From an uncultured Spirochaetota bacterium (GTDB lineage Bacteria > Spirochaetota > Spirochaetia > SZUA-6 > Fen-1364), in contig CAWGAA010000003.1 of NCBI GenBank assembly GCA_963820525.1, forward strand, positions 224,001 through 288,000: a stretch of 64,000 nt of DNA, in the 5' to 3' direction. The notes beneath the pieces were generated by a model. The model was not told the origin of the DNA. It saw only the letters and a program-made list of their open reading frames with translations, and searched no databases. How positions within the stretch are numbered: position 1 is the first letter of the stretch; every line of letters begins with the position of its first letter. Of the stretch, positions 3,001 to 16,644 are shown piece after piece. A program made the position numbers and the translations under genes.

Positions 3001-6000
3001 GAAGGGCCGCCCTGTCGCCTAGTCGAATCCAACGGTTGGCATAGCTTGCTGGACTTCCCCCTGCGTACCCCCAGCGTGCCACTATCTTGCCGGTTCCCGC
3101 GTTGAAGTTCTGATTGTTGACGAAAAGCCCGGTGCCGGACACCGTCATCACGATCGGCGATGCGCTCACTGAGATTCCCGAGCCGCTTGTCGCAGTGAAT
3201 ACAACACTAAACGTTCCCGCAGATGGGATGACGATATCGCTTCCCGGACGGTACCCCTGGCTTTCACCCGCTCCCGTGGCACCGAGGCTCTGATACGACC
3301 AGCTCCATTGCACTGTTCCGCACTGGTCCGTTGCCGCTGTATGTACCTGGATGCTCTGCCCTACGATAAACTCGCTTCCCACAATCGAGGCCGTGACCCC
3401 CTGCGGGCCGATTCCATCCTTGATAAACACCGGGCTTGAAAGCACCGGACCCACAACGTCGTTTGCGTTTCTCACCTGAAGCTGCACTCTGTAACACTGC
3501 CCATCACTGCTTATGCGGCTTCGAACCTCCTCGAACGTCTGGCCCCACTGGCTCCACTCATCGCCATTCTCCTGGGCAGTCCCGTTTTGTTCGACAAGCT
3601 GTACATTCCACCGCGCGTCTTTCACCGGGTTTGCGCCGCTTGTATCCGTTGGAACATAGCTCACCGAAAGATCCGATGCCTGCCGAATCCAATTGCGACC
3701 CGAGGCGTTTCTCATTCCGCCTACCGACAACGCCACGTCCGGCCCAGCCGCCGAATACCTGACGGCCCAAGCGCTGCTGCCGGAGGCCGGCCATTCCGAA
3801 CTGTTCCCGGCCTTATCCGTCAGCTTTATGTGCAATTTTCGAACGCCGTCTTGCGCCCCCGCGAATGTCAGAGAGTAGGTGTCTGTGGAATGGGGAACAT
3901 CGAAAAGCGCTGTTGGAACGGGCGAAACAACCGCCGCCGTCCATACCGACGTCGTTGGCGCCTGACCTTCGGTCCACTGGTATGCCGCTTCCGCAAGACC
4001 TGCCCCACCGTTCTCGTTCACCTCGATGACCGCCGTGATGGCTCCGTCCGCTCCGACATACGTGTTTCCTTCGGGGTCCGTCTCTGAAGTCACAAAATGG
4101 AAAGAGTTGGCCACCAGAACCGGCGGGGTTGTGTCCAATACCTTTGGTATCGCAGATGTGTTGAATTGATTTCCTGCATTGTCCTCCGCGATTACCTGAA
4201 TTGAATACTGCTCATCTGCAAGCGGAAGAGGGAAGTTGAAATTTCCCGCTGAATCGAAACTCACTGACTGGGGATCAACAAACGATTGGGTGCTGCCCCC
4301 CACAATTGGAGCCCAGCTTACCTTGACGCTCCTTAGCCCACTCCCTTCGGTATTATCACTGGCCGTCCCGGAGACCGTCTTTGAGTTCGTGGCAACGTTC
4401 GCGCTTGCCATCATCCCGGAAAAGGTTATCTGCGGTGGATCGACATCCCAATTGATGTTTCCGAAGGACAGCTGCTTGTAAGCATTAAGATTACTTGGGA
4501 CAGAAAAATCGGCAGGCTCTGTATCGATCCATTCGTCAAGCTTGATGAGAATCTTATTTGACTGGAGGACACCCTTGAGCTGGCTCAGTGAGTTGGTATT
4601 CGAGTCCAACTTACACATCTTCCATAAGTTATAGTCGCAAATAAGGTCATAAATTGGATCCGTTTCTTGACCGGATACGTTAATCGACGGTGTAATCGTC
4701 TGCTTTTCATAGGAGGTGGATGTGCTAAACTCACCATGGCCGTTATCAATCCCAAGCTCGAATCTGTAGTGGATGGTGTTGCCGTCCTCCGTTTGGATAA
4801 GAATATTGTGTTGGGTTAGCCTCGCTTTGGCTCCAAGCCACTGTGTTCCCAGGGCCAATTGCGGCAATGATGAGTATGGCACCTGGTATGATAGTGCCGC
4901 TGGTGCCTCGATCCGGATGTTTTGAGTGATGTTCACGTTTTCGGTATGGCCTGGGTCCGCCGTAATTTCGATGTATGGTTCATAATAGACTGTTTTCCCC
5001 GCTATCAAGTCGCTGCTATAATAGGGCGTCGCTCCTTGTACTTTTACACAGTCACTGTTTGGAGAGAGTTCAATCCCAGTTGCGTTGGTTACCTCAGTTG
5101 CCGGATTGGCGATGCAAGTGCCATCCGTTCCTATTCCCCACTTCAAGCCCCGTGTTCCGTTGCCTATTGTCTGATTCTGCCAGAATATTCCTGAAAGCGC
5201 TCCATCAAATGGCTGACGCGCCGGCGCCATGAAAGGCCCTGCAGAGCCCCACTGGGGTTTGAAGATCCGTACCGTCTTGGAAATCGAAGGCTTCCCAGTC
5301 TCGTCTTTAGCCTGAACGATCAGTTTACGGCTGTTTTCCGCGCCCCAGGCGAAAACGTAGCTTGCGCAACTGCTCACCAGATTAAGCTCTGTTGAAGTAT
5401 TTGCCGTCAAATCCGTGATCTCGATTTTGTAGCTCGGAAGTGTAGACAGTGTAGAATCGAGCTCCGAGTCTTGGTATCTAATGATTAAGGTGTCGGAGGC
5501 GAGTACTGAAGGAACTTTATCAGCCAGTAAACCCCAAAACCCGTCATCTTTGAGACTCCAAGCGTCGGAATCACCATACTTGCGTTCGAGCATCGAAAGA
5601 CTGACGGGGCTAGGTTGGGCCCGATGGAGAGAAAAGGTTATGGTTCCGGTGCTGAACATCCCCGAGGCATCCGTAAGTTTGTATTTGAGCGTATAGGGTC
5701 CGTCAGTAAAAGAATGTCCATTAGCGTCAGTGAAAGGAATCGCAGCAGTGTACTTCCCGCTGCTGTCGACTGCGAAATCTATTGCTGCGCTGCTATAGGA
5801 TACTGTCGCGTCATTGCGCTTGAGAGAGGTGACTTCTACTTTTTGGGGAGGCGCGTAGCAGCCAGCGCTGTAGGTTTTAGTAATGAGGTCCTGGTTAAAT
5901 GATAAAATTAAATGATCTGCGTTGATTGGTTTGGTGGGATCGAGTTCCATGTCTGCATTATTAGTAAATAAGTCAGTATATCTTTTATTCTGCGCGCCAA

Positions 6001-7618
6001 GTGAAATTGCTACATTATTTCCTGTGATCGTGTATATAGATGCTGACGTGTTGCCTGCATTATCGGTGGCTGTGATTATATATTCATAAGCTCCGGTAAT
6101 GGGTGTAAAGCTGGTGGCATCACCTGTGATGTCATTGCCGCTCTTTGTATATTTATAACTAATTGATTTGAAGCCACTAGTGGTATCTGTCGAAGAGAAC
6201 CCCACCGACCCATGAACATAATAGCTGCCGCGCGGTATCCATCCGCTTGGTGGAGTTATGATGGGCGAATATCGATCGATTTTTATATTCTCATTAGGTG
6301 ATTCAGGAAGTATTTTTTCATTGCCAACAGCATCTTCTGCCTTGAATCGAATACTGTATTTACCATCTAAAAGCACAGTATCAAGCCACGTAGAAGGACG
6401 TGTTCCTCCTCCAAGCGAGATCCAGTCTTTTTGATTCAGGTGTCCCTCCCGAGATACCTCAAGTCCAGCACCTAACGCGTCTGTAGCGGAGATTGCAAGA
6501 GGGTGATAAGCTTCAAATCCGAACCAAGCCGAATTATACCAGCCCGTTGTGCTGTCAGGTGGTGGTATTATAATATCAGGAGCGCTAGCCAGTATTTTTC
6601 GATATACTGTTATATTATTGTCCGCTTGATTACCAGCAGCGTCTTTCACTTTGAAGGTGAGGGTATATACTCCAGAATTGCCTGCTGAAAAAGACGCAGT
6701 TGCAGTTGTATTATTTGCCGGATTGCCATCATTTAGAGTTAGGTCTTTAAATGTGCGAGAAGCATTATCCTTATCGACATACGTTTCATCATATGTGAAA
6801 CAGGATACAATAAACCCACTTCCATCAGAGTTGTCCGTAGCTTGCAGCGTTATTTGATCCGATGATTTCCCAGGTGGAAGCCGACCATATTCGTCCGGTG
6901 CCGGCGAAGAGATAATTGAAAGAGATGGCGGTACTTTGTCGATAGTGGTTACTCTATAGTCTGTTGGATCACTGATATTTCCAACTTTATCTATTGCGCG
7001 AAACCAAACTGTGGTCTTATTCTCGGTTACAGTGCAACTATCGCCAGGGGACCAATTCGTATCACCTTGGATCTTATGTTCATACCCATACAAGCCCGAT
7101 CCAGTGTCTGTGCTTATTCCAGTGTTCTTTACTACCACCTTATCATTAGTCCAGGAGTCTGGGGATATTGTTATATCTTCAAGGAGCGGCGCTGTTGGTT
7201 TGGTTGTGTCGCTTATGAAAGTAAAAGATTCATGAATAATGACATATGTATTGAGCCCCATATGTGCTATTATTGAAATAACAAGGTTTACGTTACCAAA
7301 AACAGTAAAAGGCACATCTACAGTATTCGCGTCATCGTCCACATAAGTAGGGGGATGCAGTGTCCCATCGGGCCTGAAGACATAACAACTATACCATGGT
7401 GTATCCAAGCCAGGGTCTTCGTCTTTCTGAAAGCGAAATCCAAGCGATGAGCCCTTATAATAGTAAGTGTTTGCGTCGATTGCAGAAAGATTATCGCTGA
7501 GCGCAATGAGCCTTACGTAATAAAGATAACTTGAAGGGGAGCCATTATAGATCATTGTATCAGCAAAACTATATGACACTGAGAAAAGTACTACCAAGAT
7601 TACCAAAACTTTCTTCAT
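1..7618 (-). CDS. Giant secreted/cell-surface protein with repeated Ig-like beta-sandwich modules (>2539 aa, 3' end beyond window)
   Basis: ATG at 7618 gives a signal-peptide-like MKKVLVILVVLFSVSYSFAD. Spot translations near 7450, 5250, 4100, 3270, 800 and 1-60 are all open in the same frame. Recurrent DTTPP-type and 'D.AGN' Ig-like motifs. Missing from the ORF track, as expected for an ORF with no stop in the window. Confidence 0.85.
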   Translation of the reverse strand, partial: MKKVLVILVVLFSVSYSFADTMIYNGSPSSYLYYVRLIALSDNLSAIDANTYYYKGSSLGFRFQKDEDPGLDTPWYSCYVFRPDGTLHPPTYVDDDANTVDVPFTVFGNVNLVISIIAHMGLNTYVIIHESFTFISDTTKPTAPLLEDITISPDSWTNDKVVVKNTGISTDTGSGLYGYEHKIQGDTNWSPGDSCTVTENKTTVWFRAIDKVGNISDPTDYRVTTIDKVPPSLSIISSPAPDEYGRLPPGKSSDQITLQATDNSDGSGFIVSCFTYDETYVDKDNASRTFKDLTLNDGNPANNTTATASFSAGNSGVYTLTFKVKDAAGNQADNNITVYRKILASAPDIIIPPPDSTTGWYNSAWFGFEAYHPLAISATDALGAGLEVSREGHLNQKDWISLGGGTRPSTWLDTVLLDGKYSIRFKAEDAVGNEKILPESPNENIKIDRYSPIITPPSGWIPRGSYYVHGSVGFSSTDTTSGFKSISYKYTKSGNDITGDATSFTPITGAYEYIITATDNAGNTSASIYTITGNNVAISLGAQNKRYTDLFTNNADMELDPTKPINADHLILSFNQDLITKTYSAGCYAPPQKVEVTSLKRNDATVSYSSAAIDFAVDSSGKYTAAIPFTDANGHSFTDGPYTLKYKLTDASGMFSTGTITFSLHRAQPSPVSLSMLERKYGDSDAWSLKDDGFWGLLADKVPSVLASDTLIIRYQDSELDSTLSTLPSYKIEITDLTANTSTELNLVSSCASYVFAWGAENSRKLIVQAKDETGKPSISKTVRIFKPQWGSAGPFMAPARQPFDGALSGIFWQNQTIGNGTRGLKWGIGTDGTCIANPATEVTNATGIELSPNSDCVKVQGATPYYSSDLIAGKTVYYEPYIEITADPGHTENVNITQNIRIEAPAALSYQVPYSSLPQLALGTQWLGAKARLTQHNILIQTEDGNTIHYRFELGIDNGHGEFSTSTSYEKQTITPSINVSGQETDPIYDLICDYNLWKMCKLDSNTNSLSQLKGVLQSNKILIKLDEWIDTEPADFSVPSNLNAYKQLSFGNINWDVDPPQITFSGMMASANVATNSKTVSGTASDNTEGSGLRSVKVSWAPIVGGSTQSFVDPQSVSFDSAGNFNFPLPLADEQYSIQVIAEDNAGNQFNTSAIPKVLDTTPPVLVANSFHFVTSETDPEGNTYVGADGAITAVIEVNENGGAGLAEAAYQWTEGQAPTTSVWTAAVVSPVPTALFDVPHSTDTYSLTFAGAQDGVRKLHIKLTDKAGNSSEWPASGSSAWAVRYSAAGPDVALSVGGMRNASGRNWIRQASDLSVSYVPTDTSGANPVKDARWNVQLVEQNGTAQENGDEWSQWGQTFEEVRSRISSDGQCYRVQLQVRNANDVVGPVLSSPVFIKDGIGPQGVTASIVGSEFIVGQSIQVHTAATDQCGTVQWSWSYQSLGATGAGESQGYRPGSDIVIPSAGTFSVVFTATSGSGISVSASPIVMTVSGTGLFVNNQNFNAGTGKIVARWGYAGGSPASYANRWIRLGDRAALRDWSVQQQTTSTILDLDVTTQASSVTLSDGESVAVEVEAFDADGNVLADVTSAGSVVDTTPPVVALTAVPVYVAPNDVWLTFTGSDTQSGATGGTVLVKRSVIQPDGSWAWALVRQDNLASIEAAGQRLDIDLSGTGGVATADRIVVEVSVENGAGLTTTQESGIMIVDGTAPPAPFVMPMAEAVRYKPSGVQGDPLGSRYQTLSFNWNFTSPDPESGTVKYYWKAYTNTGELTTNPWTQVSGGTSVSGLDFSQLRYGSDSGTYSDGTVLFFAVKAVNGVGLESVGYSRGVVLDSKAPWVNTVIAVTSSGGVKTAIAGHVQLTALGSPPSVLGQVDSGDYESGLKGFDVQAGTWNNATGFLAVGDPVEGSNISAAQLQYSPALSLGSGSQTAQVGSIWMLKGHAVDNAGNESVLYSPAFRAEGSFPAIAALQMNLSENSVSFSWQVDSDSDFIQNYQLIIGDKTPIVQTQKLWSGSWKELGYKEGDEIHATVWPVTALGLGGSKTVSMTICTTVPVLADFKYTKYFSDHFNVKAVNYTPVKGPGSVQQIQWKLTDAFTGQILQDWTSDYRGMANTEWKAPYTAMISDAHMIPVDGQTLALEVKAQSRTGIWSVTTPSETILVDETPASGISISRASRYSNASGNTGVIDGWTLAAKDSQSGLLAYQTMLSMDLDPDWSMATLPVSIADNLPAVDWSTAGVGIERASQQRSYYAFVRFRNGTEDWGPAIASEYQVDINWTAPVLGLIYSNTVLKERDGNALTNEQAEMLTFTSGKEGTAFELSVNSALYGSQPVTKNGRPPGSSDTSINSYGTVTVSGPGTADFSVIGTDLYGNKTTMGDVLRFNAAPAVSIAGGGASVMTTPGAPLTLEKLVRVEDEERDYPITYSWNLGGGSPIDFSDQQKVVFAWPDAGNTAAYFQFGRNQQTSYTLKLTVSDFWGKSQVASIPVEVHNTTAGTLFTSEYWTGPVTLTGIVEVPSSLSLTLDSVDGTVNAIFGEDDVM

Positions 7619-7688
7619 AACAAGTCAGCTCCCTTCTAAGCTTTTAATTGCGGTCCAACTATCCCAGACCGGATTCCCTCATTCTTCT

Positions 7689-9393
7689 CTATGGCTTAAC
7701 GCCCGCCACAAGATTTATTCCTGAACGTGTCTCACCATTGGACAACGAAAAGTTTGGCACTGCTGGAGGATTTGCCCCAGAACCTCCGTAATAGCCAATG
7801 TAATCTCCGGATGAGAATTGGTTATCGTCATCCATATCAACCCAAACCCACAGGTAGAAAGTTCCAGGGATAATGCCAGAAACTGAATAGCTCTGGGTTG
7901 TGCCCGTTCCTGACCAATCTTGTAATGGGGAGTATTGCACAAGGCCAAAGTTGCTATTATAGAGCGTGCTTATGCTTGAAACGATCACAGCCCATGTTTT
8001 GCCGTTAGCATTCCCTGCTGCAATTGTGACCGTCCCATTCACCGATGCGTTCGCTGCGGGGTATGTGCTTAAAGTGATATTAATGTTTGAAAGCGTTCCT
8101 GAAGAGGGGACAACAAGGTTTGGCGCTGAAGGCATCAACACGCCGCTGACACCATACCATCCCAAATAATCCCCCTGTGTGGGCGACAAGCTCGCATCCA
8201 TATCAATAAAGACGGACATAAAGCATGTCCCTGCAGGCACGCTAGAGACTGTATAAGTGGCGGTTGTGCCTGAGCTTCCAAGCAAAGTTCGTATATGCTA
8301 TTACATATGGATTGGTTGGAGAGCTTATTATAATAGAAACGTTTTTCCCGTTTGCATTTGCTGATGGAATTGTCAAAGTTCCCGTGACGCTGGCTGCTGT
8401 ATAGGTGGATAATGCTATATTTTGTATTACCGTTCCCGTGTAAGAAACAGAGACATCCGATGCCGTTCCATAGTAATCGCCGTTGGTAAGCAAGCCATTG
8501 CCATCCATATCAATATGGACTGAAATATCATATATGCCTTCTGGGATATCAGTAGCAGTATATGTGGCTGTCGAATTATTTATCCAGGATAGAAGCACGG
8601 AATAAGAGGTGCCACTTTCAGCTCGGAGAAATGCCGTCCCCCCGCCATATGCGCTCGCGTCTGGTGCCGGAAGAGTCACGGTTCCGGAGACAATTGCTTT
8701 CGGAAGCAGATTGGCCGTCACTTGGTACGTCTGAGTAGTGGTATCACCCGCAGTGACTGTGTAGATCACAGGTACACCATCAGTGAAGGTCTGTGCAACT
8801 CCGCTTCCAGGGTTGACTGATGCGCCGGTAATTTGTATGGATGGTTTTAATGAGATAAGACTCGTACCTGCAGCAACACCGACCGAAACAGTATGATTAT
8901 TATTATCTACCGTTCCAATGAAATCATGCGATAGTGTTGGATTATCAGCCTTCTTGAAAGCAAAGCTAATGATGTTCTTTTCATTTGCTCCAGGCCGTGT
9001 GACAACTATAGTATATGTTATAACTGTTGTTCCATCTTCAGCATTTACTGCTATCGAGATTGTCGTGCTAGAGCCAATAGGTAAGGCAATAGGATTGCAT
9101 GCAGATCCGGATGTAATTGAAATCCCATTAACTTGGATTGTAGCTTTTGAGCTTGTGGCTGTGGGCGTCACTGTTATTGAGAAATCGGCGTAAGATACTG
9201 TCGCATTATAGCTCGTCGTAGCCGAGGCGAAGCTTGGTGTCAATGAGCCCGCAGAAATCTCAATGCCGGAGAGTGTCGCATCACTAGACTTGCTATTTTG
9301 TTGTTGGTTACCACTTGGCATTGAACAAGATAATAATACTATCAATAAAAATATCGAGATGATATAATATATAGATAGTTTATAAAATAACAT
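7689..9393 (-). CDS. Lipoprotein with cadherin-like beta-sandwich domain and repeated C-terminal modules; split by a frameshift near 8280 (ORFs 8242-9393 and 7689-8285)
   Basis: Lipobox LLSC. SSDATLSGIEISAGSLTPSF resembles the cadherin-like beta-sandwich family. Three DMD...GDY.G repeats continue across the two overlapping ORFs. Confidence 0.75.
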
Positions 9394-9444: not shown

Positions 9445-9510
9445 TTTATAACATGGAGTACTTGAGAATGCAAGGAATATTTTTCGAAGGTATCACTATG
9501 ATACCTTCGA
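9445..9510 (-). promoter_or_regulatory. Putative sigma70 promoter for the lipoprotein/giant protein genes with an upstream 12-bp palindrome
   Basis: Minus strand TTGCAT(9473-9468)-17 nt-TATAAA(9450-9445). Perfect inverted repeat TCGAAGGTATCA-CTA-TGATACCTTCGA at 9484-9510. Confidence 0.55.
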
Positions 9511-9590
9511 GTAGGACCTCACTGAACACAACTCATTTAAAGACCGCATTATATTTGTCAGTTTCGCTGGGGCTGTAAGGAATTTTATTT

Positions 9591-9975
9591 GCCTTCGGTG
9601 GCCACTTATTAAGCGACAACGCGCGCCCACTATGCCCACTGCTGACCTTCTGTCCACCCATCCCCCTCGCCTCGCGGCAGGGGTAGCTCATCGAGCAGAT
9701 GGACAGATCTCACAGGGTAATGCGCACCCACCTGCCCGCTTATGTCCGCTGCATCTACTTTCATGAGTTCCGTACAGGTATTGGACTTTGAGTTTAATAG
9801 CCCTCTTGTCCCTTATAGCTGCCTCATGCAGTTTCTGTTCGTCAGGCCAGTGCTTTGCCTGCGGCTTCTTGGGATTCCGCCTCGCGACGGACAACCTTGC
9901 CGCCCGGCTAACTGTTCCCCTGTCAGGCTAGTAGAGGACTTTCGCCTCCAAGTGAGTGCGCCCTGCCGGGCGCAC
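9591..9975 (-). mobile_element. 3'-truncated class C group II intron fragment (domains I-III only)
   Basis: Starts GTGCGCCCGGCAGGGCGC. Shares blocks with the full intron (GACGAACAGAAACT, CAGAAG(G)TCAGCA..GGGCATAGT, CCGAAGGC), then breaks into AT-rich DNA with no ORF or domain V. Confidence 0.8.
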
Positions 9976-10069
9976 CACTAAATCGACATAGGTAGACCCT
10001 CACGGGTTTTCCCTGTCACACCACCGTACATGCGGGTCTCGCATACGGCGGTTCGGTGGGATTGAGCGC

Positions 10070-11073
10070 TCAGGAAACAAGCGCCGGGAGTCCGAGGGAG
10101 TCAAAGAAAGCATTCGGTAGCGCACGGGTCAGAGCGGGGCTGTTGCTCAGCCTCCATGGTCCGTGCGCACTCCCTACCGTCTCTGCGGCAAGGTCTACAC
10201 TGATCCCCCGGTTCCTTAGCTCTTTGAAGCGGATCTTTCCACGCCTCCACTGCTTCCAGAGGAAGCAGCGCAGCCGCCTTCGGGTCCACCCGTCCAACGT
10301 GCTGAGTATGCTGGGGGTCTCGCAGAATCCGAAGTAGCCCCGCCATCCGATCATGTACCTGCGAAGCTCTCCTATCATCCGCTCGATACTGATTCCGCGT
10401 GTTCGCCGCGTCAGCTCACGAATTCGTTCCTTGAAGCGGAGGATGGATTGGGGCGCCATACGCCTCCTGATCACCTCCCCGCTGGTGAAGCTGAATCCGA
10501 GAAACTTCCGATTCCTTGGCCGCGCCACCGCGCTCTTTGATTCGTTCACCTTGAGCTTGAGCCTTCGAGTGAGAAAGCGCTTCACGCCTTCCATCACCCG
10601 TTGACCCGCTCGCTCGCTCTTCACGTAGATATTGCAATCATCCGCGTAGCGAACGAAACGGTGTCTGCGTTGCTCCAGCTCTCGGTCTAGCTCGTCGAGC
10701 AGCAGGTTGGAAAGAAGGGGGGAGAGGGGTCCGCCTTGCGGCGTGCCTTCCCCCGTCGGTCCCACTAGTCCGTTCTCCATCACTCCAGAGTTCAGAAACC
10801 CTCGGATCAGTTTCAGCATACGCTTGTCACTGATCCTTTTGGCTACGCGACTCATCAACACGTCGTGGTTCACACGGTCGAAGAACTTCTCCAAGTCAAT
10901 GTCCACGACCCAGTCGTAGCCTTGCTGGATGTACTCTTGCGCCTTCACCACTGCCTGGTGTGCCGATCGCCCAGGCCTGAATCCGAAGCTGAACTCGCTG
11001 AACGTGGGGTCCCACCGCTTTTGCAGCACCTGCAGCACCGCCTGTTGCACGAATCGGTCTCCCACCGTCGGGA
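10070..11073 (-). pseudogene. ltrA: Group II intron RT/maturase, C-terminal part (interrupted)
   Basis: PTVGDRFVQQA, SFGFRPGRSAHQA, DLEKFFD, GTPQGGPLSPLLSN and YADD motifs followed by a maturase X domain. Confidence 0.93.
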
Positions 11074-11094
11074 CGGTCAACGCTAAACGCACTC

Positions 11095-11385
11095 TTGCAC
11101 AACGCCGATTTGGGATCGGCCAAAGTCACCCACCCCTTCCATCCGCTCCGTCACCAAAGCTTTAAAATCCTCAAGACACGGAAGGTCGCAGGAATGGATA
11201 CCCTGATCCTTCAAGGAACTGAAAATGGTACATTCGCCGTTCCTCGGGAATGGACCGATCAAGCAGACCCATGCCTATTCGATTCACGCAAACGAGCTGT
11301 CCCTATCTTCTCCTTCTCCTGTCTCCGAGAGTTGCTCGACCTGGTCGATCGAATTGGGAACGGAAAAAATTGCGAAAGGTATTGA
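11095..11385 (+). CDS. DUF5372 (Y4bD-like) small protein; probable true start lies at the other end of the element (14564)
   Basis: VTHPFHPL and VPREWTD motifs. Only a TTG without an evident RBS is available locally. Confidence 0.7.
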   Translation: MHNADLGSAKVTHPFHPLRHQSFKILKTRKVAGMDTLILQGTENGTFAVPREWTDQADPCLFDSRKRAVPIFSFSCLRELLDLVDRIGNGKNCERY

Positions 11386-11436
11386 CAAATGCATAAAGCC
11401 TTAGTAGAATCTGTACAGTTTATTAACTGTACAGAT
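11382..11436 (+). promoter_or_regulatory. Near-consensus sigma70 promoter with overlapping operator-like palindrome
   Basis: TTGACA(11382-11387)-17 nt-TAGAAT(11405-11410). Perfect inverted repeat ATCTGTACAGTT-TATT-AACTGTACAGAT (11409-11436) reaches the ATG at 11435. Confidence 0.8.
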
Positions 11437-11776
11437 GAACCTACAGGAAAAATCGACAACCTTCTTACGAAGAAGGCGAACCTCCCTCCTCACCCAGGTA
11501 GCCGCTATCGACCCCCACATCCTCCGTGGCTCTCTCATCGAACGCTACATCCGTTGTGGAAAACCAGAATGCAAGTGCGCACGGGGCTCTGGTCATGGCC
11601 CCAAGTACTACCTGTCCGTCAGTTATCCCGATCAGAAACCCCAGCAAGACTACGTTCCTCAGCAATTCCAGAAACTCGTTGTACAGTCTCTCGCCAACTA
11701 CCAAAAACTGAAAACCCGCATAGAAACCATTTGCGACATCAATCGGGAACTCCTGCGAAGGAGGGAAGAGTCCTAA
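11435..11776 (+). CDS. DUF6788-like small Cys/His protein
   Basis: RGSLIERYIRCGKPECKCARGSGHGPKYYLS signature; 113 aa. Confidence 0.8.
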   Translation: MNLQEKSTTFLRRRRTSLLTQVAAIDPHILRGSLIERYIRCGKPECKCARGSGHGPKYYLSVSYPDQKPQQDYVPQQFQKLVVQSLANYQKLKTRIETICDINRELLRRREES

Positions 11777-12337
11777 ACCACCCCCGACTTAAGTCGGGGG
11801 GTTTGCGCTTGTCGGCTAAAGCCGACTGGGGCCGACATCACGGTTCTACTTTGAAGTCGGCATCTTGGTCCCGCTCTGTGTCCTGCTGATTCTCGATGTA
11901 GCGGGCGATCATCTCTTCGGTCACGTTCCCTGTGCTCGCCACGAAATACCCGCGGGCCCAAAGATGCCTGCCCCAGAATGTTTTGTTCAACCCTTTGTTT
12001 TCCATGAGCAGCTTCCGTGATGTCAGCCCCTTCATGCGCTGCACGAGCCTGGATACCGATAGAGTCGGCGGCACGCTCAGCAGCAGATGCACGTGATCGC
12101 GGCTGATGTTCCCTTTCACGATCTCTACGTCCAGGCTCGCGCAAATCATTCGTATCAGATCTCTTACGCGGGTTCCTATCTCTTTCCCCAACACTGGCTT
12201 GCGGTACTTGGTGATCCACACTATATGATACTTCAAATCATAGACGCAGTGCGACGCTTTTCGATACTGCTTCATCGTACCGCAAGCCTACTAAAGTCTT
12301 CGTCTAAAGACGAGGGGGTTTCTCCCCGTAGGAGACT
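11773..12337 (-). mobile_element. IS200-type element (tnpA only), 565 bp
   Basis: Subterminal hairpins CCCCCGACTTAAGTCGGGGG (~11781-11800) and CTTCGTCTAAAGACGAGG (~12298-12315). Both junctions carry CTAA (TTAG on the tnpA strand). Confidence 0.85.
11838..12275 (-). CDS. tnpA: IS200/IS605 family Y1 (HUH) transposase
   Basis: YHIVWITKYRK, DHVHLL (HUH), LWARGYF and RYIENQ motifs. Confidence 0.95.
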   Translation of the reverse strand: MKQYRKASHCVYDLKYHIVWITKYRKPVLGKEIGTRVRDLIRMICASLDVEIVKGNISRDHVHLLLSVPPTLSVSRLVQRMKGLTSRKLLMENKGLNKTFWGRHLWARGYFVASTGNVTEEMIARYIENQQDTERDQDADFKVEP

Positions 12338-12471
12338 CTAACAGATGGATGCCTCGCTCTCCAGCCAGATTCCCGTCGATATCGAGGCCGTCGCAACAAT
12401 CCTGGCCAATATGCTCCATGGTCATTTGGCTACGAGCAAAGGTTGCACGATGGATCTTTGGGAGGATATCG

Positions 12472-14541
12472 ATGATGACGAAAATCACTGCGACCCATAC
12501 AGACCGAATGGCGTATGTCTACCTGCGCCAATCGACCATGGGGCAGGTCCTCCACCATCAGGAGAGTACCGAAAGGCAATATGCTCTGAAGAACCGCGCC
12601 TTGCAATGCGGTTGGACGACAGACAAAATCAGAGTCTTGGATGGCGACCTGGGCATCTCGGGCGCCCACATGACCAATCGGGAGGACTTCAAGTCCTTGG
12701 TCGCGGACGTCTCCCTGAACAAGGTGGGGGCGATCTTCGCCCTAGAAGCCTCACGACTGTCCCGTTCCTCCAACGATTGGAATCGCCTCTTCGAGTTGTG
12801 TTCACTCACCGATACTCTGATAATCGACGAGGACGGATGTTACAACCCCACCGATTTCAACGACCAGCTGCTGCTGGGCTTGAAGGGGATGATGTCGCAA
12901 GCCGAATTGCACTTCATCCGCGCCCGCCTCCAAGGGGGAAAACTGAACAAGGCCAAGCGAGGGGCGCTTCATTTCCCCCTACCCGTCGGATACTGCTACG
13001 ATGAGGAAGGCACGATCGTTCTGGACTCCGACGAGGAGGTCCGCAGTGTCGTGAAGCTTATGTTTGATACATTCCAGCAGACCGGTAGCGGCTACGCGGT
13101 TGTCAAAAAGTTCACCCATCTGAACCTGAAGTTTCCCAAACGTGCCTACGGAGGAGTCTGGAAGGGCAAGCTCATCTGGGGACGACTGACATACGAGCGA
13201 GTGCACGGTATCCTGAAGAACCCTTCCTATGCGGGCGTGTACGTGTACGGACGCTACAAATACAGAAAAATCCTATCGACAGACGGCGGCATTTGCTCCA
13301 AAATAGAGTCCGTGCCGATGTCCCGCTGGCAGGTGACCATCAAGGACCATCATGAGGGCTATATCAGTTGGGATCAATTCCTTCACAACAACATGATCCT
13401 GCAGCAGAACCAGACCAACGGGATTGAAACGATGCTCCCTTCTGCTGCCAGAGAGGGAATCGCCCTTCTTCAAGGCATGCTCATTTGCGGAATCTGCGGG
13501 CGACGCCTGACCGTCCGCTACCAAGGCAACGGGGGGCTCTATCCCATCTACGAATGTAACTGGCGCAGACGGGAAGGGCTGGCGGATAAATCCTGCATGA
13601 TGTTCCGCTGCGATATCGCCGATGAGACAATAAGCGTACGCCTCCTCGAAGTATTGAAGCCGGAGCAGTTTGAGCTCGCGCTGAAGGCGATGGAAGAGGT
13701 CGAGAATCGGAACAAGGCGATTGATGCGCAATGGCGTATGAGAGTTCAAAGGGCCGACTACGAAGCGTCCCTGGCCCAAAGGCGATATGAAGAAGTCGAT
13801 CCGTCCAATCGCCTGGTCGCATCCACGTTGGAGAAACGCTGGAATGAGGCTCTCATAAACCTCGAGCAGGTCAAGCAGCAGCATCGGGAGTTCAGCCAAA
13901 AAGAGCAGATGGTAATGACTTCTGAGCAACGGCAGAAGGTATTCGCTCTGGCGCTGGATCTGCCACGTCTTTGGAAGGCGCCAACGACCCAGGCAAAGGA
14001 TCGAAAGCGCATCCTCAGGTTGCTTATCAAGGACATCACTGTTCAAAAGCTTGCCGAACCGAAAAAGCTCATCTTGCACGTGCGCTGGCAGGGGGGTGCC
14101 ACGCAAGACATCTCATGCGATTTGCCTCCAAAGGCGTGTGACAAAATCCGGTATGGGCAGGAGATTGTCCAGAAGGTCAAAGATCTCGCGAAAAATATGC
14201 GAGATGATCAAATAGCCGAGGTATTCAATAAAGAGGGACTGATCAGCTCGAAAGGAGGACAGTTCACGGAATCTAAGATACGTAATATCCGGAGTACCCA
14301 TGCTATTCCCTCGCCCAAACTGAAACATCCGGAAGAACTCACTATCAAAGAAGTCGCCGACAAGTTTAAGGTTAGTACGCAGGTCGTCTATTATTGGATA
14401 GAACGAGGATATGTGACAGCTCGAAAAACGAAGTATGGGTTACCGTTCTGGATCACACTTAAAAACCAAGATGAAGAAATACTCCGAAGACGTGTCGCTG
14501 AGTCATATAAACTCAACGAGGTGAAAACTTCACATTCCTAA
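12472..14541 (+). CDS. Large serine recombinase (resolvase, recombinase, Zn-ribbon/coiled-coil domains) with C-terminal HTH
   Basis: AYVYLRQST catalytic Ser motif, EASRLSR, ILKNPSYAG, LLQGMLICGICG. C-terminal LTIKEVADKFKVSTQVVYYWIERG. GGAGG RBS precedes ATG 12472 (ORF track start 12349). Confidence 0.93.
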   Translation: MMTKITATHTDRMAYVYLRQSTMGQVLHHQESTERQYALKNRALQCGWTTDKIRVLDGDLGISGAHMTNREDFKSLVADVSLNKVGAIFALEASRLSRSSNDWNRLFELCSLTDTLIIDEDGCYNPTDFNDQLLLGLKGMMSQAELHFIRARLQGGKLNKAKRGALHFPLPVGYCYDEEGTIVLDSDEEVRSVVKLMFDTFQQTGSGYAVVKKFTHLNLKFPKRAYGGVWKGKLIWGRLTYERVHGILKNPSYAGVYVYGRYKYRKILSTDGGICSKIESVPMSRWQVTIKDHHEGYISWDQFLHNNMILQQNQTNGIETMLPSAAREGIALLQGMLICGICGRRLTVRYQGNGGLYPIYECNWRRREGLADKSCMMFRCDIADETISVRLLEVLKPEQFELALKAMEEVENRNKAIDAQWRMRVQRADYEASLAQRRYEEVDPSNRLVASTLEKRWNEALINLEQVKQQHREFSQKEQMVMTSEQRQKVFALALDLPRLWKAPTTQAKDRKRILRLLIKDITVQKLAEPKKLILHVRWQGGATQDISCDLPPKACDKIRYGQEIVQKVKDLAKNMRDDQIAEVFNKEGLISSKGGQFTESKIRNIRSTHAIPSPKLKHPEELTIKEVADKFKVSTQVVYYWIERGYVTARKTKYGLPFWITLKNQDEEILRRRVAESYKLNEVKTSHS

Positions 14542-14581
14542 AGGCTGATATAGGAGGTGCAGTATGAATACACCGTCGGGA

Positions 14582-14948
14582 TGCCGAGTTTCCTCGTGCC
14601 TCCTCCCGCCTTGGGTATCTCCACTCGTCTCACGGGCTGGGGCTTGTACGCGCCCGCAATAAGCTGCTCCTTCAGTCGCGGCCAGTTCTCCCGCAGGAAC
14701 TCAGGTAGTTCCTTGACGCTCATGCCGTCAATCCCTGCCGCCCCTGCGTTGGCTTTCACGCGTCTCAGTGCTTCCTTCAGGTTCTCCTTCTCGCATGCCT
14801 CCTCGATCAGCTTGTCCGTGTTCGCTTGGCTTTCCGCGCTGAGTTTCGCCGTCGTGGATTCGATCCCTTTCTTGGGCGTCACAGGGGCTTCACCCCTTGC
14901 CTCGCCCTCGAAGGCCAGTTCATGCTGGATTTTCTGTCGCTTGTCCAC
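14582..14948 (-). pseudogene. ltrA: Group II intron RT/maturase, N-terminal part (interrupted)
   Basis: NLKEALRRVKANAGAAGIDG and YKPQPVRRVEIPKAGGGTRKLGIPTV; similarity stops at the att core. Confidence 0.92.
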
Positions 14949-15358
14949 TCCGAGTCGCTCCCCCTACTCGCCTTCCCGCCGTTCGGGCCTTCGGGTCAAC
15001 AACCCTACTATGCCCTTTGCTGACTTCTGACAGGCGATCAGAGACTCTCGCGAATCCCTCAGTCCCGATTCCAGGACACCTGCCAGATCTCCTGGGGTAA
15101 GCTCACCCGCCTTCGGCGCACAACCGCTGGATTTACAACCCGAGCCCTTGATGGATATGGGCTTGTCGGTCATTTGCCCGCTCGCCCGACTCGGTATGCC
15201 TCCTATCCAGTTTCTGTTCGTCGGCTCGCGCCTTTGCTCTACGCTTCTTTCGGACACGCTCTCGCGAGATAGGTGCCCTTGCGCTTCGCTACGCCTTCAC
15301 CTCCATCAGGTTGGCGAGGGGACTTCCACCCCAAAGCTGGTGAACATGCCCAGCACAC

Positions 15359-15393
15359 AAAAAAGCCGGCGACGCGTGGGCGCCGCCGGCTTT
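15359..15393 (-). terminator. Rho-independent terminator; target site of the class C intron
   Basis: AAAGCCGGCGGCGCCCACGCGTCGCCGGCTTTTTT, just after the stop at 15412 and abutting the intron 5' end. Confidence 0.85.
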
Positions 15394-15411: not shown

Positions 15412-16542
15412 TCAGTATGCGATGCCAACGCCAACGGCGATGCCCGTCAACAGGAGATCCTGACCAGCGGGAAAGAAGTCTGAGGTTGTGAAGGTCATCG
15501 ATGTAATAGTAAACTTAGAGCTCAAAGTGAGAAAGTTGAATAGAATGATATCAAGACCGGCTTCAGCACCATAGCAGAAATCTCCTTGAGAACTTCCCGG
15601 AGAAGGGATAATCCAGAATGATCCATAAGTAACCGTTTGATACCCTATAACTACTCCGAGGTATGCCTGGAAACTCCCGCCTATGGGTAAACCGATTCCC
15701 GCGCCTATCAAGCCATCGAAAACATCGTAGAAGCCGTAACTAGTGCCTGACACATCTATCTGCTCGCTTGCTCCATCGATGGCGGCTGAAAGGTAAAATA
15801 TATCGCCAAAGGCTTGCAGCCAATGCACGCTCCAGCCCAAAGCTGAAATCGATTCCGAACTCACTGTGTAGCTGAGGAGATAGGAGTCAACCTGTCCGGA
15901 AGGTATAGGATATGTGAAGGTCAAGATCAGATGCGACTTCAGCCCAGCGCTCGGCTTCCGCGGCGTTGGAGCCGGGGCCTTCGGTGCCGGCGCCGGCTCA
16001 GGCTCAGGAGTCGGCTTGGGTGCCGGTGCCGGAGCTGCAGTCGGCTCTTCGGCCACCTGCACGGACTCCTTGGCGCCGACCGAGAGCTTCTTTCCAACCA
16101 CCTGGGCGATCTGGAGGGTAACGGCGATCCCGCCCTCCGACTCGTAGGAGGCCTGGGCGGTGATCTCCCCGGTCTTGATGTCTATCATTTTGGCGCTGAC
16201 GAAGTACGTTTGCCCCACCTGGGAAACCCGGCCGACGACGACGTAGGTTGCGCCGAGTCGGGAATTGAGCTGCTCTCCCGCCTTCTTGATGTCGGCATCG
16301 CTCACAAGACCCGACATCTGGAACTCGATCTCCTTGAGGCTCTGTCCCACCGTTGTTCTGTCAAGCACGGTGTACTTGCCCGAGTTCACGAGCTCTTCGC
16401 TGATCTTCTCCGTGACGCCGATGGAAACGTTCTTGTCCATGTTCTCGGGCAGAACGGCATCGAGCACGGCCACTTTCGGCAAAGCCGCCAGGGAGGCGGC
16501 GCAGGCCACGAGCAGGAGGAGGACGATTATCCTGGCTTTCAT
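15412..16542 (-). CDS. Secreted protein: CsgG/HfaB-like N-terminal domain, Pro/Ala linker, probable outer-membrane beta-barrel
   Basis: Signal peptide MKARIIVLLLL after an AAGGAG RBS. SGKYTVLDR..LKEIEFQMSGLV motif, PAPAP linker, C-terminal VGVGIAY. Confidence 0.7.
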   Translation of the reverse strand: MKARIIVLLLLVACAASLAALPKVAVLDAVLPENMDKNVSIGVTEKISEELVNSGKYTVLDRTTVGQSLKEIEFQMSGLVSDADIKKAGEQLNSRLGATYVVVGRVSQVGQTYFVSAKMIDIKTGEITAQASYESEGGIAVTLQIAQVVGKKLSVGAKESVQVAEEPTAAPAPAPKPTPEPEPAPAPKAPAPTPRKPSAGLKSHLILTFTYPIPSGQVDSYLLSYTVSSESISALGWSVHWLQAFGDIFYLSAAIDGASEQIDVSGTSYGFYDVFDGLIGAGIGLPIGGSFQAYLGVVIGYQTVTYGSFWIIPSPGSSQGDFCYGAEAGLDIILFNFLTLSSKFTITSMTFTTSDFFPAGQDLLLTGIAVGVGIAY

Positions 16543-16644
16543 TTGCAGCTCCTTTTTCAGGCGTTTCGGCGCTTTCTCATAATGATAGCCCGTTTTTTTC
16601 AATCCCGCAAGGGTGCGCTGTCGGCGGAGCGTTTCCGGGGCCTG

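Follow-up and report, generated by a model that had tools for sequence, protein, structure and literature searches.

A serine recombinase element inserted at the conserved LGIPTV codons of a group II intron reverse transcriptase, and its relatives in many phyla

Results

A large serine recombinase element in the reverse transcriptase gene of a group II intron

We analysed a stretch of 64,000 nucleotides from an uncultured Spirochaetota bacterium (contig CAWGAA010000003.1, positions 224,001 to 288,000; "the window" below), in which the reverse transcriptase (RT) gene of a group II intron is split by a 3508-bp insert carrying the gene of a large serine recombinase (LSR). As judged from the sequences compared here, the insert is very probably an integrated element of the insertion sequence (IS) kind, which has the LSR as its sole enzyme and uses as target site (attB) the DNA coding for the R-x-L-G-I-P-T-V-x-D-R motif of group II intron RTs. 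Such introns are neutral, multi-copy and horizontally mobile, and their RT motif is unable to drift; the element would therefore be a hyperparasite whose landing pad is available in many phyla.

The split at LGIPTV and the size of the insert had been noted in an earlier, sequence-only reading of this DNA. Both were confirmed, the cut falling between LGIP and TV: there are two RT open reading frames (ORFs) and, 3508 bp apart, two copies of CACCGTCGGGA (Table 1). Joining the RT pieces in silico at the crossover gave 1371 nt coding for 456 amino acids (aa), with no internal stop, LGIPTV as residues 121–126 and the YADD motif kept, meaning that removal of the insert restores the RT as had been claimed. 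We split the gene into 370 + 1001 nt (compare with 367 + 1004 nt in the sequence-only reading, the same sum), the figures differing because the cut point within the 11-bp repeat is arbitrary. In the C-terminal piece, Pfam found RVT_1 (E 6e-40) and GIIM (E 6e-21).

Around the RT gene and on the same strand (−), Rfam models for the D1-D4 parts of the ribozyme span positions 14986–15271 (RF02001 at 15101–15271, 123 bits; RF01998 at 14986–15062, 49.5 bits), and the domain V/VI model RF00029 matched at 9982–10053 with 39.5 bits, just under its gathering score of 40. As ribozyme domains lie on both sides of the RT ORF, this ORF is within domain IV, the position already assigned to it in the earlier reading. 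Domains I-IV and V/VI around an RT with a maturase (X) domain make up the arrangement of a bacterial group II intron, which measures about 1.87 kb without the insert.

The recombinase has the features of an LSR, namely a resolvase-type catalytic domain with the nucleophilic serine and an arginine cluster, and the order DBD1-zinc ribbon (DBD2). The Pfam matches were PF00239 (E 1.8e-17, residues 14–165), PF07508 (E 1.7e-17, residues 189–312) and PF13408 (E 1e-9, residues 332–388), and the C-terminal extension contains a MerR/HTH_17-like helix-turn-helix (HTH). Residues Y15, R19, S21, R95 and R98 are invariant in an alignment of 26 recombinases that includes the window's protein, which keeps every invariant column. 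In the mechanism that we propose, the recombinase would excise the element as a circle, leaving an exactly restored RT gene, and integration by attP x attB recombination would follow, attP being the site formed by the joined element ends. The inactivation of the RT should thus be reversible, given the conservative chemistry of serine recombinases.

The break falls at the same RT residue in the relatives

A protein search returned thousands of matches. The 120 listed are all at least 59% identical to the query, and 114 of them are on contigs shorter than 10 kb, mostly of about 3 kb, as is typical of repeats at which assemblies break. We also scanned species-representative genomes with a profile (an alignment used as query); at least 599 stretches matched, 545 of them encoding a relative, and the best 80 loci were kept. 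Flanks were counted at 81 loci, that is the best 80 of these 545 and the window, by tblastn with the window's two RT pieces, and a flank was considered usable when it had at least 150 nt. The loci, designated L followed by a number, come from Acidobacteriota, Planctomycetota, Pseudomonadota, Thermodesulfobacteriota, Myxococcota, Verrucomicrobiota, Spirochaetota, Nitrospirota, Bacteroidota and others.

An RT half abuts the element at 111 of the 123 usable flanks. When both flanks were usable (54 loci), both RT halves were present in 45 cases, one in six and none in three (L035, L048 and L053). The break is confined to a few residues: the alignment of the C-terminal half begins at residue 1 of the window's C piece in 42 of 55 matches and at residues 3–7 in the others, and that of the N-terminal half ends at residues 131–133 of the N piece in 55 of 62 matches, with a whole range of 126–136. 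In most loci, rebuilding the junction yields the peptide LGIPT(V)xDR. Among 49 distinct rebuilt attB sites, the proline and the upstream arginine are present in all 49, the aspartate in 47, the leucine in 46, the glycine in 44 and the isoleucine in 42. The proposal that introns serve as a landing pad was thus supported by the flanks of the homologues.

The flanking RTs are only 26–73% identical to that of the window. Parts of the host ribozyme were found at gathering score on the RT strand in 13 of the 16 loci scanned (none for L072, L073 and L047), and at least five Rfam D1-D4 classes (D1-D4-1/3, -2, -4, -6 and -7) are represented among the host introns. LSRs about 40% identical to that of the window, on Nostoc and Streptomyces plasmids, split the RT at the same residue.

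On one of these plasmids, from Nostoc (NZ_CP026685.1), a gene annotated "Y4bD/Y4pK family protein" precedes a 41%-identical LSR inside the split RT (L099, 2480–2995). Its product gave a sub-threshold match to DUF5372 (E 8e-5), the family of a small protein that the element encodes (see below); the likeness to Y4bD/Y4pK consists of this match and of the adjoining LSR, which splits the RT at the same residue. The names y4bA-D and y4pH-K denote repeated genes of rhizobial symbiotic plasmids and come from pNGR234a; Y4bD/Y4pK is no more than a name so far, and our literature search found no biological paper using these names. Recombinase matches occur in 314 plasmid records, of which Rhizobium, Sinorhizobium and Bradyrhizobium account for 207, as counted by the recombinase match alone.

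We also observed a sister family, whose recombinase is 31–39% identical and which has a DUF5372-like gene, a Shine-Dalgarno sequence (SD) with an ATG at its right end, and no DUF6788 gene. It splits the same RT genes in RT block 3, between ...DLEKF and FD(x)VNHD (Table 1), and some introns therefore hold two different recombinase elements.

The centre dinucleotide of the attachment sites and the orientation of the insertion

Anchoring on the conserved ends was used to locate the limits of the elements. The element starts and stops at a 2-bp centre, GG in the window, and two contigs consisting of the element only (L067 and L085) begin and end at the centre dinucleotide. Once joined, the ends form the predicted attP, an imperfect palindrome with arms of about 21 bp, each with an outer GTGCA and an inner ACCGTC whose left arm partner is GACGGT. 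The target, read antisense, is AC.GT. followed by GG and.AT.CC, and corresponds to the Thr-Val, Pro and Gly-Ile codons in antisense. This comparison shows that the inner half-site and the centre of the predicted attP mimic the antisense of the Pro-Thr-Val codons, and that the predicted crossover falls on the CC of the invariant proline codon, which is immune to synonymous change.

The attB predicted in the sequence-only reading agrees with the one reconstructed from the rebuilt RT junction, but its view of the 11 bp as a duplication did not hold: they reflect identity between attP and attB around a 2-bp crossover, being composed of the inner hexamer with one extra base, the centre and two bases common to attP and attB by chance. 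Imperfect palindromes, a 2-bp crossover and the lack of a target-site duplication are the attributes of LSR attachment sites, and all are seen here, where the RT frame is exactly restored.

Elements are found in both orientations relative to the RT gene. In 40 loci a GG centre goes with an RT in antisense to the recombinase, and in 23 a CC centre goes with an RT in the sense orientation; the other seven RT-flanked loci have an ambiguous or degenerate centre, and the opposite pairing occurs in none of them. A quick maximum-likelihood tree (IQ-TREE) of 65 recombinases requires at least six changes of the sense/CC state. The recombinases of L082 (CC, sense) and L086 (GG, antisense) are near-identical, and the DNA of their right arms is identical. 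By sequence comparison, the centre dinucleotide sets the orientation of the insertion, antisense for GG and sense for CC. It is established from work on Bxb1 and phiC31 that a non-palindromic central dinucleotide alone sets the polarity of serine integrase reactions; at the level of sequence, the GG/CC split is what this rule predicts and represents a natural experiment.

Two further loci are of note with respect to the centre. In L055 (5539–8105), both junctions have GA as centre and the target has a TCN (Ser) codon in place of CCN (Pro), meaning that element centre and target codon changed together. In L026 (1480–4440), which has a GC centre, both flanks carry the N-terminal half of an RT, one sense and the other antisense; this suggests an inversion, or an exchange involving two copies of opposite orientation.

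The DUF5372 gene is divided between the two ends of the element

Besides the recombinase gene, the element contains two small genes encoding proteins of the families DUF5372 and DUF6788 (Table 1). Public records name the members of this trio just "DUF5372 family protein", "DUF6788 family protein" and "recombinase family protein". All elements seen encode DUF5372, those of the sister family too; the shorter ones lack DUF6788.

At the left end, the body of the DUF5372 gene is open from the crossover and has neither a start codon of its own nor an SD before the TTG at 11095. At the right end, an SD and an ATG lie inside the P arm of attP; four more codons follow this ATG, and the frame then crosses the centre and runs without a stop into the DUF5372 body of the left end. 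We examined this arrangement in 58 loci whose two ends have matching centres. In 56 of them the right end provides an in-frame start that opens an ORF of 85 codons or more across the joint; an SD-like motif upstream of this start was also found in 56, and an ATG within the first 19 codons past the left junction in none. In the circle, the SD and ATG of the right end would be joined to the start-less DUF5372 body, which would then sit downstream of the recombinase gene. Since this joining takes place in the circle only, we infer that DUF5372 would be made solely from the excised, free form.

A promoter-like site with 11 of 12 consensus positions overlaps the end of the DUF5372 gene and is followed by two CTGTACAG palindromes immediately ahead of the start of DUF6788. 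A similar −35-like box with an inverted repeat occurs at the equivalent place in most of the 20 relatives inspected. DUF6788 and the recombinase would thus be transcribed from a promoter inside the element, accompanied by an operator-like inverted repeat, in what looks, from this layout, like an autoregulated operon.

The DUF5372 proteins share invariant HP.HP and WT motifs, and the predicted fold (pLDDT 83) is a small beta-barrel with a C-terminal helix, for which a search against the PDB gave weak matches alone (the central domain of eS4, NdhS and Tudor; KOW-like), the best with an E value of 8.6e-3. In DUF6788 a CCCH set is invariant and the predicted fold (pLDDT 92) comprises a helix, a zinc-knuckle sheet and a long helix, without any match in the PDB (best E 0.5). 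We tentatively suggest that DUF5372 could be a circle-specific cofactor favouring re-integration or helping to find diverged targets, although the odds are rather against this particular role. It is unlikely, but conceivable, that DUF6788, which would be expressed in both states, acts as a directionality or regulatory factor.

Host intron and nested IS200

The 5' end of the host intron, GTGTG (from 15358 downwards), is directly behind a GC-rich hairpin and T-run. Group II introns of class C (IIC) insert behind transcription-terminator hairpins, are short and lack an endonuclease domain. The restored 456-aa RT has no further domain in Pfam, and the host may be of class C (IIC-like). Directly behind its 3' end lies the fragment of a second intron; the two look like class C-like introns piled up at one terminator site, the older copy being truncated near 9480–9590.

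The sequence-only reading described the element as minimal. It is indeed small and has the LSR as its sole mobility enzyme, but it is not quite minimal as it stands, for an IS200, overlooked in that reading, has landed in it. Without this IS200 the element measures about 2.94 kb, in agreement with the median for the family (2946 bp). The insertion has the attributes of the IS200/IS605 family (a Y1 HUH transposase, multiple identical copies and defined ends) and provides the last codon or two and the stop of the DUF6788 gene. Four further copies in the genome are 100% identical over 569–573 bp (the nested copy has 569 bp), and contigs of the Logan collection stop at 11773 and 12341, with a depth in between of about four times that of the surroundings. 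The IS200 is therefore a later, independent insertion, and the four identical copies indicate that it is active now or was so recently. Other members of the family are also enlarged by secondary insertions, namely L076 (817–4440), L079 and L081, with 6375, 3580 and 3361 bp compared with the median of 2946 bp, so that these elements are themselves landing sites.

Table 1. Positions of the features discussed; coordinates refer to the window, except in the last row, where they refer to the respective locus.
Feature	Position	Strand	Evidence or remark
5' fragment of a second, RT-less group II intron	9590..9891	-	RF02001 9723-9891, E 1e-20; RF01998 9590-9686, below gathering score
Group II intron (IIC-like), host of the element	9982..15358	-	RF02001, RF01998 and RF00029 matches; 3' end approximate
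RT gene, C-terminal part, start (P)TVGDR, with YADD	10070..11070	-	ORF 10070-11092(-); Pfam
11-bp core CACCGTCGGGA, left copy (inner half-site ACCGTC, centre GG, then GA), common to attL and attR	11063..11073	.	
Inserted LSR element including the nested IS200, 3508 bp	11071..14578	+	Crossover GG at 11070-11071 and 14578-14579
DUF5372 gene body, open from the crossover	11071..11385	+	PF17342, E 7e-19 (Pfam on 11095-11385)
Promoter-like site TTGACA-17-TAGAAT (11382-11410) and two CTGTACAG palindromes (11411-11418, 11427-11434)	11382..11434	+	
DUF6788 gene, CCCH zinc knuckle between two long helices	11435..11776	+	PF20586, E 3e-26
IS200-type insertion, Y1 transposase ORF 11838-12275(-), hairpins at the flanks	11773..12341	-	PF01797, E 1e-43
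Large serine recombinase gene, 689 aa	12472..14541	+	Pfam
SD GGAGG (14553-14557) and ATG (14564-14566), right end, inside the P arm of attP	14553..14566	+	
11-bp core CACCGTCGGGA, right copy	14571..14581	.	
RT gene, N-terminal part, end ...KLGI-P(CC)	14579..14948	-	ORF 14538-14948(-)
Terminator-like hairpin (15365-15390) and T-run (15359-15364), belonging to the upstream gene 15412-16602(-)	15359..15390	-	Sequence reading
Sister-family copies in other loci	L030 2458-5209; L046 2458-5209; L075 2237-4878; L083 2435-4987		

Alternative explanations and mobility of the element

Several observations weigh against an autonomous element specialised on the RT motif. At 12 of the 123 usable flanks no RT half is found, and L048 (5140–8094, centre GG) and L035 (1363–4323, centre GT) are clean insertions outside RT genes; the specificity is therefore high but not absolute, and since the centre of L035 is GT at both junctions, this is an element with an altered centre that has gone to another target. 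As to sampling, the 80 loci were the top scorers among 545, and some are near-copies from a small number of Vicinamibacterales genomes; they cannot be counted as independent samples. A subset of elements (2566–2789 bp) lacks DUF6788, which is therefore not essential, and the roles considered for DUF5372 and DUF6788 rest on gene layout, the folds having given no informative match in the PDB. In the window's genome, the insert is single-copy apart from the IS200, the intron is single-copy too, and there is no second full RT as a target; we also looked in the same assembly for an uninterrupted copy of the intron, as the earlier reading had proposed, and found none. The IS200 lies between the promoter and the recombinase gene and, having landed between the latter and DUF6788, may have crippled recombinase expression; with an IS200 in its operon and no other full RT in the genome, the window's copy may be stranded. 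Finally, no joint of a circle or of an empty site was seen in the Logan contigs, which drop rare forms, and no public RNA run was listed as containing window sequence.

The first alternative is a transposon of low specificity, comparable to those of TnpX and TndX, of which only the copies that landed in harmless introns survive, the association with RT genes being a matter of survivorship. LSRs are known to move clostridial transposons, Tn4451/Tn4453 (by TnpX) and Tn5397 (by TndX), and in Tn4451 the joint of the circle creates a promoter for tnpX. These transposons resemble the element in having an LSR as sole mobility enzyme, an expected circular intermediate and a joint that creates an expression signal. 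Unlike the element, they carry cargo (resistance, conjugation), use short degenerate sites and typically contain DUF4368; the element carries no cargo, has a target of about 40 bp in one protein motif, and its joint completes DUF5372 rather than a promoter for the recombinase. In favour of low specificity, L035, L048 and L053 lie outside RT genes, and multi-targeting LSR clades, including one that is TndX-like, are described in the accessible part of PMC10083194. Survivorship should lead, however, to insertions scattered along the intron, whereas the break was found at one codon in 111 flanks and at one dinucleotide, and the element ends share the hexamer of the target. Moreover, the accessible part of PMC10083194 gives DUF4368 in 63% of the TnpX/TndX-like multi-targeting clade, and none was found among the Pfam matches of the window's recombinase with E values up to 0.01. 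A TnpX/TndX-like multi-targeting transposase was rejected on these grounds (no DUF4368, and a target that is one codon position of one motif), and we leave only a slim chance to low specificity as an explanation.

A second alternative, to which we give a slimmer chance still, is that the element is only a passenger, captured once as a cassette and spread as retrohoming cargo with RT supplied in trans, without any targeting of its own. The loci L025 and L029 are identical from about 3450 to 9268, the Rfam-defined ends of the intron, and their outer flanks are unrelated, as if the composite had been duplicated as a unit; L072 and L073 share 5681 nt at 99.9%. Both pairs fit a composite that retrohomed with RT in trans as well as two fresh hits on identical introns; an element with its own targeting may thus also hitchhike with its intron, as the sequence-only reading had suggested. 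Intact RTs that could act in trans do coexist with occupied introns, since the genome of L075 has 32 GIIM (maturase-domain) matches and 10 recombinase matches. As the sole mechanism, passenger spread does not account for elements (2952–2958 nt) that are 100% identical within one genome and have flanks without mutual blastn match (L020/L021 and L031/L032), nor for the identical elements of L075, on a chromosome, and L077, on a plasmid, again with flanks without blastn match; in the pair L023/L058 one flank is without match and the other is 70% identical. In L032/L033 the element is 100% identical and the intron flanks 96–97%, and this greater likeness of the element looks like two related introns hit separately. 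The host introns of at least five classes, the insertions of L035 and L048 outside RT genes, the attP that mimics the target and the orientation that tracks the centre dinucleotide also argue against cargo and for an element that finds its own targets.

Four Vicinamibacterales loci with near-identical elements (L018, L020, L021 and L023) show all four combinations of RT flanks, with QRGKF.. or KDGSE.. on the N side and TVADR.. or CLRDR.. on the C side. This suggests that recombination between element copies shuffles intron halves and possibly rearranges the genome.

About as improbable as a passenger is a domesticated switch, retained by host or intron as an on/off control of RT production. 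LSR elements are known to intervene in genes in this manner, such as skin (SpoIVCA, sigK), SPbeta (SprA, spsM) and the fdxN element (XisF). The architecture is the same, with an LSR element inside a coding sequence whose excision should rebuild the gene exactly, and the best NCBIfam match of the window's recombinase was XisF. That match reached 77.8 bits compared with a cut-off of 375 for the XisF equivalog (NF041201), which we rejected. In addition, the known elements are single-copy, lineage-bound and developmental, whereas the family studied here is multi-copy, occurs in many phyla and several intron classes and resides in another mobile element. Nothing here links the element to a developmental programme, and no close copy was found in 60 relatives of the genome with the query used (best 47% identity).

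An assembly artefact, in which a chimeric join would have put a recombinase contig into the intron of a metagenome-type assembly, where repeats break contigs and most of the listed homologues are on contigs of about 3 kb, has next to no chance, as the RT frame is exactly restored, the same junction structure recurs among the relatives, complete genomes included (L030 and L075, for example), which is a stronger argument than the contigs, and Logan contigs from two public runs, which may be the window's own source sample, cover 10800–11115 (run X1), 14005–14649 (X1) and 14473–14850 (X2) with 0 mismatches and therefore bridge both junctions, thereby answering the concern over misassembly raised by the sequence-only reading.

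Discussion

With its domains and sites, the element studied here is that of an ordinary LSR: the chemistry is already known, and it is the lifestyle and the circuitry that are new. The integrases of Bxb1 and phiC31 have the same domain order, imperfect palindromic att sites of about 40–50 bp, a 2-bp crossover and a centre that sets polarity; the general properties of LSRs are treated in the accessible part of PMC12286644. Unlike these integrases, the recombinase of the element is associated with no phage, has about 150–190 extra C-terminal residues with an HTH, and is accompanied by DUF5372 and DUF6788 and by no known directionality factor. Where Bxb1 and phiC31 have one chromosomal locus as attB, the element has a conserved amino-acid motif that thousands of diverged genes encode. 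The use of another selfish element as a harmless landing site also has a counterpart in nested group II introns and in RmInt1, a group II intron that reportedly homes into ISRm2011-2. Unlike in the case of RmInt1, here a DNA element invades an intron, by conservative site-specific recombination and with a coding motif as target instead of RNA guidance.

A search of full-text literature, with subscription journals outside its scope, found no description of a serine recombinase element in group II intron RT genes and no paper naming DUF5372 or DUF6788. In its accessible part, PMC4853749 treats serine recombinases and introns separately. The term "reverse transcriptase" is absent from the accessible part of PMC10083194, whose supplementary target-gene Pfam enrichment could bear on novelty.

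The main family and its sister probably belong to a large, ancient and unnamed superfamily of serine recombinase "intron hunters", whose attB sites would be invariant RT codons (LGIP/TV, or KF/FD in the sister family) and which would share a state-sensing circle gene and flips of polarity by inversion of the centre. If so, these are natural integrases whose target is a protein motif rather than a single locus. The family accounts for many unplaced contigs of about 3 kb and for annotated trios of recombinase, DUF5372 and DUF6788 genes, it gives a context to two Pfam domains of unknown function, and it offers integrases with defined sites of 40–50 bp from many phyla. The pair of near-identical recombinases with different centre and orientation is a natural test of the rule that the centre sets polarity, and the split DUF5372 gene would be a simple built-in sensor of the free versus the integrated state. 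For the ecology of selfish DNA, the element adds a new level, that of a DNA element specialised on the selection-fixed stretch of a retroelement's gene; the logic is that of phages integrating into tRNA genes, here applied to a parasite. Intron hunters may limit intron populations while they travel from phylum to phylum on intron-rich plasmids.

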